A stretch of DNA of 42,859 nt, taken from NCBI GenBank assembly GCA_035369485.1, contig DAOSMC010000002.1, positions 1 to 42,859 of the forward strand. Reading direction: 5' to 3'. Below are positions 4,335-31,802 of the stretch, piece after piece (within the stretch, counting starts at the first letter, position 1; every line of letters starts with the position of its first letter). Under the pieces are notes generated by a model. The model did not search any database. It worked only from the letters and a program-made list of their open reading frames with translations, and was not told the DNA's origin. A program made the position numbers and the translations under genes. Origin of the DNA: Minisyncoccota bacterium. Lineage in GTDB: Bacteria > Patescibacteriota > Minisyncoccia > UBA6257 > JAAZHW01.

Positions 4335-5438
4335 ATGTTTCGGTTAATTAAAAAATCAAAAAAATCGGAAGCGCGATTGGGGCAAATTAAATTAGCCTCA
4401 GGAACAATCAAAACGCCTTGTTTTATGCCGATTGCTACGCGAGGTAGCGTGAAGAGCGTGACAAGTGCTGATTTAGAGAAAATAGGAGCTGAAATTATTT
4501 TGGCGAATACTTACCATCTTTTTCAGCGGCCGGGAGATGAAGTAATCAAAAAATTTGGTGGTCTGCATCAATTTATGAATTGGCGCAAGCCAATTTTAAC
4601 TGATTCTGGAGGGTATCAGGTTTTTTCTTTGGCTCAATTAAGAAAAATTAGTTTAGCAGGCGTGGAGTTTAATTCGGAAGTTGATGGTCAAAGAATTTTT
4701 CTTTCTCCAGAAAAAGCATTAGAGATTCAAAAAAATTTAAATTCGGATATTGCTATGATTTTGGATTATTGTGTTGGTTATCCAGCTAAAAAAGCAGAAG
4801 TAGCAAGGGCGATGCAATTAACCACTTTATGGGCTGAACGCAGTCGCAAGTATGCTGATAAAATCAAATTTAAAAATCAAATTTTTGGCATCATTCAAGG
4901 AGGAATTTTTAAAGATTTAAGAAGCCAAAGTTTGCAAAATTTAATGAATTTGAATTTTGATGGTTATGCGATTGGCGGTTTGGCAGTGGGCGAGCCGGAG
5001 AAAAAAATGAAGGAAATTATTAAGTGGTTAGCACCGCAAATGCCCGCAAATAAACCGCGCTATTTAATGGGTGTGGGATATCCCGAACAAATTTTTGAAG
5101 CTATTCAAAATGGCGTGGATATGTTTGATTGCGTTATTCCAACGCGTCATGCTCGGCATGGTGAACTTTTCGTTCGCACTAATAAACAAATTGTTATTTC
5201 GAGACGGTTAAACTATCAGATCATTTCTATTGGGAAAAGCAAATATCAAAGTCAGAATTTGCCCGTTGATCGTTTTTGTCATTGTGAAACTTGCGCGAAT
5301 TATTCATTAGCCTACCTTCACCATCTTTATAAAAATAACGAATTACTTTATTATCGATTGGCGACAATCCACAACTTGAAGTTTTATTTGGATTTTATTA
5401 GAGAAGTTCGCTTAGCGATTAAAAACAATCTGATATGA
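4335..5438 (+). CDS. tgt: tRNA-guanine transglycosylase (queuine/preQ1 tRNA-ribosyltransferase)
   Basis: 367 aa. TPCFMPIATRGSVK, LANTYHL, DSGGYQVFSL, zinc site CHCETCANYSLAYLHHL. Confidence 0.93.
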   Translation: MFRLIKKSKKSEARLGQIKLASGTIKTPCFMPIATRGSVKSVTSADLEKIGAEIILANTYHLFQRPGDEVIKKFGGLHQFMNWRKPILTDSGGYQVFSLAQLRKISLAGVEFNSEVDGQRIFLSPEKALEIQKNLNSDIAMILDYCVGYPAKKAEVARAMQLTTLWAERSRKYADKIKFKNQIFGIIQGGIFKDLRSQSLQNLMNLNFDGYAIGGLAVGEPEKKMKEIIKWLAPQMPANKPRYLMGVGYPEQIFEAIQNGVDMFDCVIPTRHARHGELFVRTNKQIVISRRLNYQIISIGKSKYQSQNLPVDRFCHCETCANYSLAYLHHLYKNNELLYYRLATIHNLKFYLDFIREVRLAIKNNLI

Positions 5439-19378: not shown

Positions 19379-20323
19379 ATGAATCAGAAAAGCCTTTTAA
19401 ATTTAAAAAATCAATATCTGGAATATTTGGAAATAGAGAAAAACAGAAGTGCAAAAACTTTAGAAAATTATAACCGATATCTAACCGTTTTTTTGAATTT
19501 TTTAAGTGAGCGGTTGCATAAAAAATTAGAGCAATTGATCCCCAAGGATATTACGCTAGAAAACGTTCGTCAATTTCGACTCTACTTGAACCGTACTGAA
19601 GGAACCGAGGGCAATCTTAAAAAGGTAACTCAAAATTATTATATCATTGCGCTTCGAGGTTTTCTTAAATATTTGAGTAAGATGAACGTGGAATCATTGC
19701 CGGCCGAACAAGTGGAATTAGCTAGAGTAACGCGTAACGAAATTGGATTAATTAGCTTTGAGGATTTAGAAAGACTACTTAATGCGCCAGATGAAAATTC
19801 ATTGAAAGGACTTCGAGATCGAGCAATTCTTGAGATGCTTTTTGCAACGGGCTTGCGTGTTTCAGAGTTGTGTCAATTAAATAGAGAAAGCGTTAATTTA
19901 GAAAGGGGTGAATTTAGCGTTAAAGGGAAAGGCGGAAAGATTCGTTTAGTGTTTCTTTCGGATTCAGCCAAAGCGATTTTAAAAAAATATTTAGAGAAAA
20001 GAACTGACACTGAAGAGCCGCTTTTTATTACATTTAAAAAATCAAAAAACAATGAGGTGCTGGGTAGAATAACGCCACGAAGTGTTGAGCGCTTGATAAA
20101 TTTTTATGCTAGAAAATCAGGCATTGTAAAAAGAGTTACTCCCCACACGTTGCGCCATTTATTTGCGACAGATTTATTGCAAAATGGAGCAGATCTGCGT
20201 TCTGTTCAAATGCTTTTAGGGCATTCCAATATTAGCACCACCCAAGTTTATACTCATATTACCGATAAAGAATTAAAAGAAATCTATCAAACTTTTCATG
20301 CTCGGCGGCGTAAAAAACCTTGA
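19379..20323 (+). CDS. tyrosine site-specific recombinase, XerC/XerD family
   Basis: 314 aa. N-terminal SAM-like core-binding domain. Catalytic ATGLRVSEL, HTLRHLFAT, LLGHSNISTTQVYTH. Confidence 0.9.
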   Translation: MNQKSLLNLKNQYLEYLEIEKNRSAKTLENYNRYLTVFLNFLSERLHKKLEQLIPKDITLENVRQFRLYLNRTEGTEGNLKKVTQNYYIIALRGFLKYLSKMNVESLPAEQVELARVTRNEIGLISFEDLERLLNAPDENSLKGLRDRAILEMLFATGLRVSELCQLNRESVNLERGEFSVKGKGGKIRLVFLSDSAKAILKKYLEKRTDTEEPLFITFKKSKNNEVLGRITPRSVERLINFYARKSGIVKRVTPHTLRHLFATDLLQNGADLRSVQMLLGHSNISTTQVYTHITDKELKEIYQTFHARRRKKP

Positions 20324-29827: not shown

Positions 29828-29946
29828 TTTTATCTTTGAACATTTACAATTGAAGAAATTAAGTTAGCCACCCAAAATTTTTAAGATACTTGATTTTTAT
29901 TGGATAATCAGGTATTTTATTATAAATGGAACAAAGAATTATTGGT

Positions 29947-30018
29947 GGCCACGTAGCCAAGTAGTAAGGCATCGGTCTGCAAAACCGATATACGTGGGTG
30001 CAATTCCCACCGTGGCCT
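29947..30018 (+). tRNA. tRNA-Cys(GCA)
   Basis: Acceptor GGCCACG/CGTGGCC with discriminator T (U73, typical of Cys). Anticodon arm TCGGT-CTGCAAA-ACCGA. T arm GTGGG-TGCAATT-CCCAC. No CCA. Confidence 0.9.
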
Positions 30019-30121
30019 CAGAAGTAATTTAAAAACTTAAAAATTAAAAAGTGGAAAGAATAAAATTAAGAAATTAAAATAACCAAAACCTCGATTTTTT
30101 ATTTTTGCATTTACCACTATT

Positions 30122-30207
30122 GCCCGGGTGGCGGAATCGGCAGACGCGTTGGACTCAAAATCCAATGACCTTTACCGGTCATGAGAGTTCGAGTCTCTCC
30201 CCGGGCA
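30122..30207 (+). tRNA. tRNA-Leu(CAA)
   Basis: Acceptor GCCCGGG/CCCGGGC with discriminator A. Anticodon arm TTGGA-CTCAAAA-TCCAA. Long variable arm TGACCTTTACCGGTCA. T arm GAGAG-TTCGAGT-CTCTC. No CCA. Confidence 0.92.
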
Positions 30208-30228
30208 CAAACGAATAAAATGAGTTTG
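30199..30228 (+). repeat. direct repeat copy 1 (last 9 nt of tRNA-Leu(CAA) plus 21 nt of trailer)
   Basis: CCCCGGGCACAAACGAATAAAATGAGTTTG. 29 of 30 nt identical to 30373-30402. Confidence 0.95.
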
Positions 30229-30372
30229 GGACCGGGAGCAAGCCAACTGCTTGGCTTGCGTGGGGACGAGAAGCGCGCAGCTATGGGCGACGAGCGAGTT
30301 GGCGAGGAGCCCAGCGAGCGGCGGGCTGCGAGCGCGAGAGCGGAAGCTTGAGCGACTTGTAGCCGAGTCCCA
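30229..30372 (+). other. 144-nt GC-rich structured insert between the direct repeats (candidate small RNA or remnant of an integrated element)
   Basis: 98 of 144 nt are G+C (68%), hand counted, in an AT-rich window. Reiterated GCGAG. Several mutually compatible helices, including a perfect 8-bp hairpin at 30238-30259 and a GGAA-tetraloop hairpin at 30338-30349. Confidence 0.45.
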
Positions 30373-30402
30373 CCCCGGGCACAAACGAATGAAATGAGTT
30401 TG
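30373..30402 (+). repeat. direct repeat copy 2 (orphan tRNA 3'-end/trailer copy)
   Basis: CCCCGGGCACAAACGAATGAAATGAGTTTG. Preceded by CGAGTCCCAC, which resembles the T-loop/T-stem of the parent tRNA (CGAGTCTCTC). Confidence 0.95.
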
Positions 30403-30410
30403 ATCCGATT

Positions 30411-30465
30411 TTATTGTCATCCTGCTTTTTATTGTCATCCTACTTTTTTAATGTCATTCTAAGGA
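30411..30465 (+). repeat. three tandem 18-19-nt units with core ATTGTCATCCT / ATTGTCATCCT / AATGTCATTCT
   Basis: Cores at 30413-30423, 30431-30441 and 30450-30460, starting 8 nt after direct repeat copy 2. Confidence 0.85.
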
Positions 30466-30536
30466 CAAGGTCCGAATCCTCCATCTCTTAGCAATAATCA
30501 GCATTTACTGCTGTGGATGAGATTCTTCGTTTCGCT

Positions 30537-30571
30537 CAGAATGACAGGAAAAAAACGTTCAGAATGATAAA
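30537..30571 (-). repeat. two inverted copies of the same core (TCAGAATGACA, TCAGAATGATA)
   Basis: AGAATGACA at 30538-30546 and AGAATGATA at 30561-30569 are the reverse complement of TGTCATTCT (second copy has 1 mismatch). Spaced 23 nt apart. Confidence 0.8.
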
Positions 30572-30626
30572 CTAGTGCTTGTGACATGGCGATGGTTAGC
30601 AGATTTAAAATTTTAATTGAAAAATT

Positions 30627-30658
30627 AAAACGGGAGCTAAGATCGCTTCCGTTTTTTT
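30627..30658 (+). terminator. orphan intrinsic terminator with no upstream CDS
   Basis: AAAACGGGAGC-TAAGATC-GCTTCCGTTTT: a 7-bp stem including one G-U, followed by a run of 7 T. The nearest upstream plus-strand genes are the tRNAs. Confidence 0.6.
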
Positions 30659-30812
30659 GTTCAACGTTTGGAAGGTTAAATTTTTAATCTTTGAATTTAA
30701 ATTATTTCCACCTTCCATTAGTATTTTATTTATCGCAATAAACTTGCAAAAAAGAGGAACAGAATATTAACCCTCTTTTTTTATGTTATGAAATTTTTTA
30801 TAATAAAAATTA

Positions 30813-31802
30813 ATGAAGAAAGAAAAGATGAAAAAGGTGGTAGTCATTGGAGGCGGAACAGGTGTGTTTGTGGTTTTGACGGCTTTGAAAAATTTTCCCG
30901 TCCATCTTTCGGCGATTATCAGTATGGCGGATTCTGGTGGTTCAAGTGGAATTTTAAGAGAAGAATTCGGTATTTTGCCGCCAGGCGATGTGCGGCGCGC
31001 TTTAATTGCTTTATCCAATTCAGACAATAAGCTTTTAGCCAGATTATTTAATTATCGTTTTAATGAAAGTTATTTTTTGGATGGTCATAGTTTTGGTAAT
31101 TTATTTATTACTGCTTTGGAGCGCATTACGGGCGATTTTCAAAAAGCGATTCGCGAGGCGGGGAAAATTTTAAACATTTCAGGCGAAGTTATTCCGGTGA
31201 CTTTAGACAACATCAATCTCGTTGCTCAACTAAAAAACGGTCAAATTATTTATGGCGAAAGCGCGATTGATCGAAGAAAAGAGAAAAATTCTTCTAAGAT
31301 TCAAAAAATTTGGATTCAACCAAAAGCCAAAATTAATCCTTTGGCTCGCCAAACAATTTTAGCAGCTGATTATATTGTTATTGGCCCGGGTGATTTATAT
31401 ACAAGTATTATTCCAAACCTTTTAGTTAGTGGTGTTACGACTGCTTTAAAAAAATCACGGGCGAAAAAGATTTTTATTACTAATATTATGACCAAAAAGG
31501 GCGAAACAGACGATTTTAAGGCCTCTGATTTTATTATTACTCTTGAAAAATATTTAGGAAAAAAAATACTTGATTATGTTTTAATAAACAATAGTCGTCC
31601 GGATAAAAAACGTTTTAAGAAATACAAAGAGGAGGGTGCTCAATTTGTAGAGCCAAATGTAGATCAATGGGGAAGGGCATTGGTTATTAAAAAAGATTTA
31701 TTACGAGAAAGGGGATTATTGCGACATGACCCTAAAAAATTAGGAACAACCCTTGGTGAAATTATTCTGGCTGAGAAAACGTATGGAAAGCTCATTAAAT
31801 AA
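30813..31802 (+). CDS. YvcK/CofD-like (UPF0052, gluconeogenesis-factor family) protein
   Basis: 329 aa. VVVIGGGTGVFVVLTALK, SAIISMADSGGSSGILREEFGILPPGDVRRALIALS. An alternative ATG at 30828 is possible. Confidence 0.85.
   Translation: MKKEKMKKVVVIGGGTGVFVVLTALKNFPVHLSAIISMADSGGSSGILREEFGILPPGDVRRALIALSNSDNKLLARLFNYRFNESYFLDGHSFGNLFITALERITGDFQKAIREAGKILNISGEVIPVTLDNINLVAQLKNGQIIYGESAIDRRKEKNSSKIQKIWIQPKAKINPLARQTILAADYIVIGPGDLYTSIIPNLLVSGVTTALKKSRAKKIFITNIMTKKGETDDFKASDFIITLEKYLGKKILDYVLINNSRPDKKRFKKYKEEGAQFVEPNVDQWGRALVIKKDLLRERGLLRHDPKKLGTTLGEIILAEKTYGKLIK

Follow-up and report, generated by a model that had tools for sequence, protein, structure and literature searches.

A family of repeat units behind tRNA genes in Patescibacteria, predicted to form a folded, tRNA-like RNA

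Duplication of a tRNA 3' end is the classic footprint of an integrase. In mascRNA/MALAT1 and in the t-elements of plant mitochondria, an acceptor/T-arm-like module guides RNase P and RNase Z (or the CCA-adding enzyme) and sets the ends of the RNA. In bacterial YrlA Y-RNAs, a tRNA-like module recognised by tRNA-processing enzymes defines the RNA ends (PMC4201824). E. coli contains 22 tRNA-linked repeats (TLRs) in ten tRNA and rRNA operons, and the last 18-19 bp of each repeat are the same as those of the gene before it. These repeats have been on record since 1978, their mode of origin is also unexplained, and no function is known except for the 5S-linked small RNAs (sRNAs) RrA, RrB and RrF (PMC8144298). 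These TLR-derived sRNAs lie behind E. coli 5S rRNA, are transcribed in the upstream stable-RNA operon and processed, and have a 3' end set by the copied 3' end of the upstream gene (PMC8144298). Here we describe an insert directly behind the tRNA-Leu(CAA) gene of a Minisyncoccota bacterium, found in a stretch of 42,859 nt of contig DAOSMC010000002.1 (the whole stretch is called the window, and coordinates refer to it; L001-L056 denote compared loci or contigs). The insert is one copy of a previously undescribed family of folded RNA units behind tRNA genes. At a probability of roughly 60%, we read it as one unit of a tRNA-linked, tRNA-like structured RNA repeat family that is co-transcribed with the tRNA and probably excised by tRNA-processing enzymes.

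The complete repeat unit is a predicted RNA of 153 nt (30229-30381, + strand); unit length in the family is about 153-180 nt. A covariance model, R1, was built for the unit and run on all compared loci, and this was its sole match in the window (154.1 bits, E = 2.5e-40). From 5' to 3', the unit consists of an acceptor-mimic strand, the helices P2 to P5, and a copy of a tRNA 3' end up to the discriminator A30381. The five helices P1-P5 were defined by agreement between the single-sequence folds of both subtypes and the RNAalifold consensus. The 5' strand of P1, GACCGGG (30230-30236, + strand), mimics the tRNA-Leu acceptor strand GCCCGGG and pairs at 6/7 positions with the copied acceptor 3' strand CCCGGGC (30374-30380). 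P2 (30238-30259, + strand) is an invariant hairpin, GCAAGCCAA-CUGC-UUGGCUUGC, which was the same in 13/13 aligned units. P3 (GGGAC/GUCCC) has the 5' strand GUGGGGAC (30260-30267, + strand), which stands for the 5' strand of the T-stem and pairs with 30367-30373; its 3' strand is made of the end of the T-loop copy and the start of the T-stem 3' strand. P4 (30273-30322, + strand) is an interrupted stem, GC.CGC.GCU/AGC..GCG.GC, whose apical hairpin (30285-30312) is subtype-specific. P5 (30324-30364, + strand), GGCUGCGAGCGC...GCG.CUUGUAGCC, forms a long hairpin that is tipped by a GGAA loop and contains two conserved G·U pairs. The tRNA 3'-end copy (30364-30381, + strand) is of the tRNA-Leu(TAA) type and reads CGAGT (part of the T-loop), CCCAC (the T-stem 3' strand, which is also the P3 3' strand), CCCGGGC (the acceptor 3' strand, which is also the P1 3' strand) and the discriminator A.

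An earlier note on this DNA, made from the letters alone, had drawn a fold of five elements. Its closing helix (P3), its TGGGC/GCCCA helix and its GGAA hairpin were all present in the minimum-free-energy fold, and its first hairpin is real, with 9 bp (30238-30246 with 30251-30259) rather than the 8 described. The pairing that it proposed between 30273-30281 and 30325-30335 lay outside the family consensus, in which 30273-30282 pairs with 30313-30322 (P4) and 30324-30335 pairs with 30352-30364 (P5, supported by covariation). The outermost helix, P1, was absent from it.

The + strand fold had a free energy of -82.5 kcal/mol (z = -4.8), and 0/200 shuffled sequences were as stable; the - strand gave z = -1.35. 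All units had the almost invariant blocks AGCAAGCCAACTGCTTGGCTTGCGTGGGGACGAGAAGCGCGCAGC, GCGAGCGGCGGSCTGCGAG and ACTTGTAGSCGAGTCC in common. Between these blocks, the sequences fell into two unrelated subtypes, the GC-rich type A, to which the window's unit belongs, and type B, which is richer in A+T. The apical hairpins of the two types are completely different and the folds are alike (type B, -85.3 kcal/mol, z = -7.7). Among 13 distinct units, 98.2% of the cells of the consensus pairs were paired, compared with 30-38% after sliding the partners by 1-3 columns. Six pairs were changed on both sides, and the observed covariation score was reached by 0/500 shuffles; five of the six pairs lie in the P5 arm, four in the stem and one in the tip. 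Within type B, the apical hairpin also changed from CTAACC/GGTTAG to CCAACC/GGTTGG. The fold is kept in both subtypes, with compensatory changes.

A look-up of the identical CofD/YvcK protein (30813-31802) gave ten contigs from independent ENA, JGI and NCBI assemblies, of which L005 is the window itself. The insert was present with the same junctions in five contigs besides L005, and the differences were three single-nucleotide polymorphisms (SNPs): A/G at 30237 in an unpaired junction, C/T at 30288 in the P4 apical hairpin, which turns a G-C pair into G·U, and T/C at 30349 in P5, which turns a G·U pair into G-C. In both types, the antisense fold was less stable than the sense fold by 15-20 kcal/mol. 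This stability advantage, the conserved G·U pairs and the structure-preserving SNPs point to an RNA transcribed in the same direction as the tRNA.

At its 3' end, each unit carries a copy of the local tRNA from the T-loop (CGAGT) through the discriminator, and the 5' strand of the unit is complementary to this copy. Four combinations of P1 strands were found, each with 6-7/7 pairs: GACCGGG/CCCGGGC, GACGAGG/CCTCGGC, GGACCGG/CCGGTCC and GGACATG/CAGGTCC. The first two differ by two double compensatory changes and both keep the A2·G71 mismatch, so the 5' strand of P1 is not a plain copy of a tRNA 5' strand. On the 3' side, P1 (7 bp) and P3 (5-7 bp) follow each other without a break, which is the topology of the acceptor/T-arm stack of a tRNA; P2 takes the place of the D and anticodon arms, and P4-P5 (about 100 nt) take the place of the T-loop. 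The end of the unit matched the 3' end of the local tRNA at 18/18 positions in L021, L024 and L028 (CGAGTCCCTCCCTCGGCA) and at 17/17 positions in L029 and L055 (GAGTCCCCTCAGGTCCA). The end of the window's unit matched its own tRNA-Leu(CAA) at 15/18 positions, the last 9 nt exactly; its T-stem strand CCCAC is of the tRNA-Leu(TAA) type, where tRNA-Leu(CAA) has CTCTC.

All units keep ACTTGT on the 5' side of the T-loop remnant. In L018, L023 and L025, the tRNA-Leu(TAA) genes have a matching GACTTGTGGGTTCGAGTCCCAC, and the longer stretch ACTTGT-AGC-CGAGTCCCACCCCGGGCA of the unit matches GACTTGTGGGTTCGAGTCCCACCCCGGGCA of the same genes. This match suggests that the family probably arose from the 3' half of a gene of the tRNA-Leu(TAA) type. 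The window's unit was 100% identical over its 153 nt to the units at the tRNA-Leu(TAA) loci L018 and L023, and, together with the T-stem of the same type, this points to a probable recent acquisition from a tRNA-Leu(TAA) locus.

Family members were collected by exact core 20-mers, in a first scan of one genome per species and in a second scan of metagenomes. The first scan yielded one true homologue, L012 (Patescibacteria, UBA6257), directly after tRNA-Ala(TGC). The second, with GGGGACGAGAAGCGCGCAGC, yielded 19 loci, of which 18 were true. Three matches (L011 and L013 of the first scan, and L026) were rejected as chance occurrences in high-GC genomes, with neither the hairpin nor a tRNA context. 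The two scans thus gave about 20 loci with the conserved core, and two further loci were obtained by a protein-space search. The known hosts of the family are a few Minisyncoccia-like Patescibacteria from metagenomes of sludge and digesters, and the CofD homologues are labelled Minisyncoccia or Patescibacteria by their sources. At most loci, the unit lies directly behind a tRNA-Leu or tRNA-Ala gene on the same strand, with a gap of 8-21 nt. The tRNA was tRNA-Leu(TAG) in L014, L017, L020, L021, L024, L028 and L056, tRNA-Leu(TAA) in L018, L023 and L025, tRNA-Leu(CAA) in the window and L019, tRNA-Ala(GGC) in L015, L016 and L031, tRNA-Ala(TGC) in L012 and L030, and tRNA-Ala(CGC) in L029 and L055. 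Sites lacking an upstream tRNA were L032 and the second sites of L016 and L031. L030 has the order tRNA-Ile, tRNA-Ala, unit and, 2.1 kb on, 23S rRNA, so that the unit stands in the spacer of an rRNA operon. This spacer (L030 2590-4723, about 2.1 kb) is unusually long and contains open reading frames (ORFs) for an ICMT/PEMT-like methyltransferase and a mechanosensitive-channel transmembrane-helix protein.

Copies per locus numbered 0, 1, 2 or about 2.3. Tandem arrays with periods of 168-194 nt were present in L017, L019, L023, L024, L027, L028 and L055. The right-hand boundary differed between loci: 13 nt of linker in L018, L020 and L023, 21 nt in the window, 21 + 6 nt in L021, L024 and L028, a point inside P2 in L025, and a point just past P2 in L019. 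Close relatives also differed in copy number at one and the same locus. The window locus had either no copy or one, and the comparisons of L021 with L024 and L028, of L018 with L023, and of L029 with L055 gave one or two. At one locus the subtype was swapped, type A in L018 and type B in L025, between flanks that were 91% identical. L018 and L023 were 79% identical upstream and 99% identical from the unit onward. L019, the orthologous site in a species with 69% flank identity, had a linker and core identical to those of the window.

In two contigs, flanks of different loci were joined. Both have the left flank of the tRNA-Leu(TAG) locus, in which L014 and L020 are 99.9% identical. In L014 it runs into the CofD flank of the window (98.8%), and in L020 (7100-8713) into the right flank of the tRNA-Leu(TAA) locus, with 99.5% identity to L023. 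The two joins are either rearrangements through the repeat or assembly chimeras.

The R1 search revealed no cryptic copy elsewhere in the window, and none in empty alleles or at naive sites. Its further matches were weak, partial 'end modules' in L019 (- strand, past the last unit), L025 (3051-3200), L031 (4398-4530) and L016 (1205-1311). Each consists of a partial unit (5' strand, hairpin P2 and GCGT), AAAAATTATT, a 13-bp hairpin GGCGGCGAAATTCT-AAAA-GAATTTCGCCGCC, and TTAAAATACGTATTTATTAGTCT; in L031 and L016, the module is also solitary, lacking a tRNA (R1, 27.5 bits). Type B loci share a further repeat, GCAAAAAAGTTYYCTTTTCYTTTTAGAAGAAAAAA...CTTTTTTGCGG, at L012 6830-6960 (- strand), L031 3030-3210 and L032 4330-4425. 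In L031 and L032, the junction TCCAACAAACA|CCACTATA stands where L029 has a tRNA before the unit.

In the window, the tRNA-Leu(CAA) gene (30122-30207, + strand) was called by ARAGORN and Rfam, in agreement with the end at 30207 given before, and its sequence was the same in alleles with and without the insert. Its last 9 nt, CCCCGGGCA (30199-30207), begin the first copy of a 30-nt direct repeat, CCCCGGGCACAAACGAAT[A/G]AAATGAGTTTG, at 30199-30228 and 30373-30402. The 29/30 identity claimed for the two copies was confirmed, and so was a weaker identity reaching the T-loop, which lengthens the repeat to 39 nt at 92% from 30190/30364. The 21-nt non-tRNA part of the repeat had exactly two occurrences in the window, and its shuffle expectation was 0.00 even with 3 mismatches. 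The first of these linkers, CAAACGAATAAAATGAGTTTG (30208-30228, + strand), forms a 5-bp hairpin by itself. The second (30382-30402, + strand) is a terminal partial unit that makes up copy 2 of the direct repeat together with 30373-30381, and comparison with L035 showed that the native flank restarts at ATCCGATTTT after it. These 21 nt had been described as the trailer of tRNA-Leu, which did not hold: the same linker, CAAACGAATRAAATGAGTTTG, stands behind tRNA-Leu(TAG), (TAA) and (CAA) genes wherever a unit is present, and it was found neither behind the window's tRNA-Leu(GAG) nor at the naive orthologous sites L035 and L038. It belongs to the element.

The 144 nt between the repeat copies (30229-30372) contain 98 G+C (68%), as first counted, and the insert is the top G+C peak of the window (0.71 per 100 nt, which exceeds the window mean of 35.4% by more than 5 sd). 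The suggestion of a high-GC, foreign origin was not supported. High G+C is the look of a structured RNA gene in an AT-rich genome and is no evidence for foreign origin. For annotation, the lesson is that a G+C island downstream of a tRNA in the AT-rich genome of an uncultivated organism can be an RNA gene, not an att scar or a spurious ORF.

Two of the near-identical contigs, L003 and L004, miss precisely 174 nt and retain one repeat copy with its linker; otherwise they were 99.9% identical to the window over 21 kb. The sample with the empty allele L004 also contains a unit at tRNA-Leu(TAG) (L056). Orthologous RbfA/tRNA-Cys/tRNA-Leu(CAA)/CofD loci with 73-76% identical CofD were also compared: L035 and L038 had neither unit nor linker, and L036 and L037 had at most a faint resemblance to the element. 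The comparison of empty sites in relatives that the earlier note asked for therefore gave both naive sites and single-repeat alleles, and the single-repeat alleles are not pristine targets. Because naive sites carry neither unit nor linker, L003 and L004 are most simply secondary deletions between repeat copies that left a solo linker.

These features suggest how the unit would be made. The tRNA-Cys(GCA) gene (29947-30018, + strand; ARAGORN and Rfam RF00005, 68.6 bits) is the first gene of a presumed tRNA-Cys/tRNA-Leu/repeat-unit transcript and has a promoter-like site upstream (29881-29908). No promoter-like site was found in the 21-nt gap between tRNA-Leu and the unit, and a terminator-like hairpin with a T-run (30627-30655, + strand; an 11-bp stem followed by a TTTGTTCAAC tail) may be the likely end of the tRNA/unit transcript. 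Because of this short gap and the hairpin, we infer that the unit is co-transcribed from the tRNA promoter. Since P1 stacked on P3 imitates the acceptor/T-arm minihelix, RNase P would cut the 5' end of the unit and RNase Z would cut past the discriminator, after which CCA would be added; the product of this processing would be a stable, tRNA-like RNA about 153 nt long. In the DNA, units could be gained, lost, multiplied and swapped when the tRNA 3' end recombines with its copies, and this would give rise to the arrays, the 174-nt presence/absence polymorphism and the solo-linker scar. The conserved fold with its compensatory changes, the position on the tRNA strand and the acceptor-mimic closure fit the earlier proposal of a small structured RNA co-transcribed with tRNA-Leu and released by tRNA-processing enzymes; the transcription and processing parts of that proposal derive from the architecture.

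Several points weigh against a co-transcribed and excised RNA. Its transcription and its processing (cleavage by RNase P and by RNase Z, then addition of CCA) are deduced from architecture. Near-identical strains do without the element and sister species lack it, which fits a selfish repeat as well as a functional RNA. Collection by exact 20-mers biases the member set toward conserved cores. P2, P3 and most of P4 are invariant, and because these helices never vary, covariation is silent on them. Most compensatory changes split only the two lineages A and B, which means few independent events. L014 and L020 may be chimeras, and copy numbers from short-read assemblies are uncertain. When tRNA-Leu, linker and unit (30122-30383) were folded as one RNA, an alternative nesting of -128.2 kcal/mol was obtained. 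In it, the tRNA 5' acceptor strand pairs with the 3' copy of the unit, and the tRNA 3' strand pairs with the 5' mimic of the unit across the linker hairpin; the precursor could therefore in principle misfold or be regulated in this way.

A possible explanation, at a clearly minority probability, is a selfish or neutral tandem DNA repeat (a satellite, or an element like a miniature inverted-repeat transposable element or a repetitive extragenic palindrome) whose spread from one tRNA locus to another would depend on recombination, either homologous or illegitimate, and possibly on preceding natural transformation, with the RNA as a functionless by-product. Empty alleles in 99.9% identical strains, absence from sister species, variation of copy number and subtype at single loci, the joins between loci that run through the repeat (L014, L020) and the co-occurrence with other downstream repeat modules all favor it. 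The near-identical sequence across species whose flanks are 69-79% identical suggests horizontal spread, and the competence gene ComEC adjoins the locus. Against it speak the invariant core combined with wholly replaced apical hairpins that still pair, a P1 maintained by double compensatory changes, the strand-specific G·U pairs and structure-preserving population SNPs, and the strict position and orientation relative to tRNAs. A selfish repeat is compatible with the co-transcribed, excised RNA that we prefer; the sole difference between them is a cellular function of the RNA. Its role would most likely be that of a tRNA mimic which binds or titrates a tRNA-binding factor, or that of a largely selfish passenger of tRNA operons.

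The stronger proposal that the units are true tRNA mimics with a cellular job, as decoys or sensors for tRNA-binding factors, is rather unlikely in our judgment. After processing and CCA addition, the end of the minihelix would resemble that of tRNA-Leu or tRNA-Ala and might even be aminoacylated, and the conserved P2 and the P4-P5 domain would bind a partner. Targets could be, for example, tRNA-targeting toxins, defence nucleases, or charging or stress sensors, and selection in a conflict of this kind would be what lies behind the rapid changes of copy number, the swapped subtypes and the horizontal spread. If true, this would be the first functional rationale for tRNA-linked repeats, unexplained since 1978.

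A miniature or decayed integrative element is very improbable. The earlier note had put forward such an element as one of two alternatives. In this explanation, a tyrosine integrase inserted DNA at the tRNA-Leu 3' end; attL and attR would be the two 30-nt repeats, with a 144-nt remnant of the element between them. The duplicated tRNA 3' end matches the classic footprint, the 174-nt presence/absence polymorphism is precise, and a Xer-type recombinase is encoded in the window at 19379-20323. However, the same core stands behind six tRNA species and the duplicated end changes accordingly, whereas an integrase would use a single att core. Units form head-to-tail arrays, their right boundary varies from 13 nt of linker to a point inside or just past P2, which a fixed-core recombinase would not give, and the supposed tRNA trailer within the repeat is element sequence. 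Compensatory changes that preserve an RNA fold would not be found in an att scar. No recombinase lies in or next to the 144-174-nt element, and no single att core with fixed junctions was found. The neighbours of the insert are RbfA and CofD/YvcK, in line with the earlier remark that no integrase is adjacent and that the only recombinase in the window is Xer-like and 10 kb away. The recombinase gene sits among housekeeping genes; its protein has an N-terminal SAM-like domain and XerC/D-type architecture, and nothing seen links it to the repeat. At eight other loci, Pfam revealed neither a conserved protein partner nor an integrase among ten sampled flanking ORFs.

Even less credible is a small protein gene like the 'tpr' ORF in E. 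coli rtT, which would start at an ATG in the linker (30220) and run through the unit as MSLGPGASQLLGLRGDEKRAA... Gene callers annotate such an ORF of 43-80 aa over the unit in several assemblies, in the window at 30220-30351 and at homologous positions in L002, L006, L008 and L009, and array periods of 174 and 168 nt, being multiples of 3, leave the frame open across units. However, the periods of 170, 169, 184 and 194 nt are not multiples of 3; the TGA at 30349-30351 cuts the window's ORF to 43 aa, and the T/C SNP removes this stop in L008. The ORF on the opposite strand had no Pfam match, chance open frames are expected at 68% G+C, and the substitutions track base pairs, not codons. A protein-space search with the unit-spanning ORF for diverged members returned only 5 'proteins', all of type A or B. 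These entries of a public collection, P0121-P0125, are translations of RNA units, which parallels the 'tpr' ORF in E. coli rttR.

The extreme local G+C and the metagenome-assembled source could speak for DNA of a high-GC organism chimerically joined into an AT-rich contig, but this has practically no chance of being right, since identical junctions occur in at least six independent ENA, JGI and NCBI assemblies from different samples (L001, L002, L006, L008, L009 and the window) and related units stand at other tRNA loci and in other species.

Database searches gave the unit no known identity. In Rfam 15 at gathering thresholds, the whole window and 7 loci matched only tRNA and large-subunit rRNA, and at E <= 10 the unit was unmatched in window 30050-30700 and in the type B unit of L029. 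The segment thus hit no known RNA family, which the earlier note had named as an outcome that would count against it; an analogous class exists in the E. coli TLRs. The unit had no counterpart among GenBank phages or PLSDB plasmids when BLASTN was run in distant mode. In viral contigs, a 28-mer over hairpin P2 + GTGGGG had 0 matches, and the 16 matches of the 17-mer GACGAGAAGCGCGCAGC were all due to chance, in high-GC coding sequence. ARAGORN and RF00005 found genuine tRNAs only, with no tRNA or tmRNA on 30229-30381. tmRNA, YrlA, self-cleaving ribozymes and the non-coding RNA of retrons or DRT systems were rejected, as Rfam gave no match and the flanking genes examined included neither a reverse transcriptase nor a partner gene. 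An intron in the T-loop, or a split tRNA, was dropped because bacteria are not known to have a splicing endonuclease. A regulatory leader of the downstream gene was also rejected, because the downstream genes differ at every locus. Literature on tRNA-like RNAs in Patescibacteria and the candidate phyla radiation contained nothing relevant, and a family of the TLR kind is new for this phylum, none having been reported in the literature searched.

Other features were also seen in the window. A tRNA gene is truncated by the window start (1-59; RF00005, 32.5 bits, model positions 14-71). Behind the insert, 30409-30463 holds three direct copies of TTTTAWTGTCATYCT, whose inverted partners CTCAGAATGACAGG and TTCAGAATGATA lie at 30535-30570. 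A related module, TGTCATCCTGAGG ... GC-rich palindrome ... CGAAGGATC, was found downstream of the arrays in L019, L025 and L031 (4540-4670), and window 30489-30525 resembles L031 around 4540-4575. From their sequences, the TTTTAWTGTCATYCT/TGTCATCCTGAGG-type modules look like a second repeat family that accompanies the units.

In comparison with known systems, the insert resembles the att duplications of integrases and cis-mobilisable elements in the tRNA 3'-end direct repeat that brackets it and in its presence/absence polymorphism. It is unlike them in having no integrase among the neighbouring genes examined, multiple tRNAs with matching ends, arrays, a variable right boundary and a conserved RNA fold. 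With YrlA, mascRNA and t-elements it shares an acceptor/T-arm-like module, here P1 of 7 bp on P3 of 5-7 bp with a discriminator A, but a domain of two arms (about 100 nt) occupies the T-loop position, and a single hairpin that of the D and anticodon arms. The sole match of the mascRNA model on L029 (type B) was weak (14.8 bits) and lay on the tRNA-Ala gene, not on the unit, and no Ro60/Rsr gene was seen among the flanking genes examined. Like RrA, RrB and RrF, one unit (L030) lies inside an rRNA operon; these sRNAs bind Hfq and CsrA through GGA motifs, whereas the units described here are predicted RNAs.

The closest known class is the E. coli TLRs (RtT, RF00391), which are analogous and not detectably homologous. 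By the features used for TLRs (PMC8144298), the family agrees in its position behind a tRNA or rRNA gene, in the copied 3' end and in the tandem copies; the E. coli repeats likewise lie directly downstream of a tRNA (or rRNA) gene in an operon, in 1-5 tandem copies. The repeat length is 178 nt for the E. coli tyrT-tyrV unit, which ends in the tRNA-Tyr 3' end, and 174 nt here; in the K-12 tyrT-tyrV region, the annotated RttR has 171 nt and ends at the copied CCA terminus of the tRNA. Both have a G-rich 5' segment that pairs with the T-stem copy and is followed by GAGAAGC (GGGGAAGG-AU-GAGAAGC in RtT and GGGGAC-GAGAAGC here). On E. coli, RF00391 found four copies at 133-137 bits; with this model (gathering score 45 bits), the type A and type B units gave no match at E <= 10, and R1 gave no match on the E. 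coli region at E <= 1. Homology to RtT was rejected after RF00391, R1 and pairwise alignment (not significant) had all failed. An exact 12-13-mer, GAAGCGCGCAGC(G), is common to E. coli RtT (L033, NC_000913 1286000-1288200) and window 30263-30281, at different unit positions; neither it nor GGGGA..GAGAAGC, which has comparable positions in RtT and the unit, is significant alone. The resemblance may reflect either very deep homology or convergence. On reading its sequence, RtT has no acceptor 5'-strand mimic (GGUGGGG) and its fold is weak (z = -1.1), whereas the units described here are closed by P1 and strongly folded. The host here is a Patescibacterium, and, unlike in RtT, the same core serves six tRNA species. 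The units are thus a second family of the TLR kind, unrelated in sequence to that of E. coli as far as detectable, in the distant, reduced-genome Patescibacteria, and two such families point to either a general, recurrent route from tRNA 3' ends to such elements or a general use. This family lends itself far better to analysis than the E. coli one, since it offers a strong five-helix fold in two subtypes, an acceptor mimic that co-varies with the neighbouring tRNA, natural alleles with 0, 1 and 2 copies, truly naive sites, and apparent movement between tRNA loci and species.

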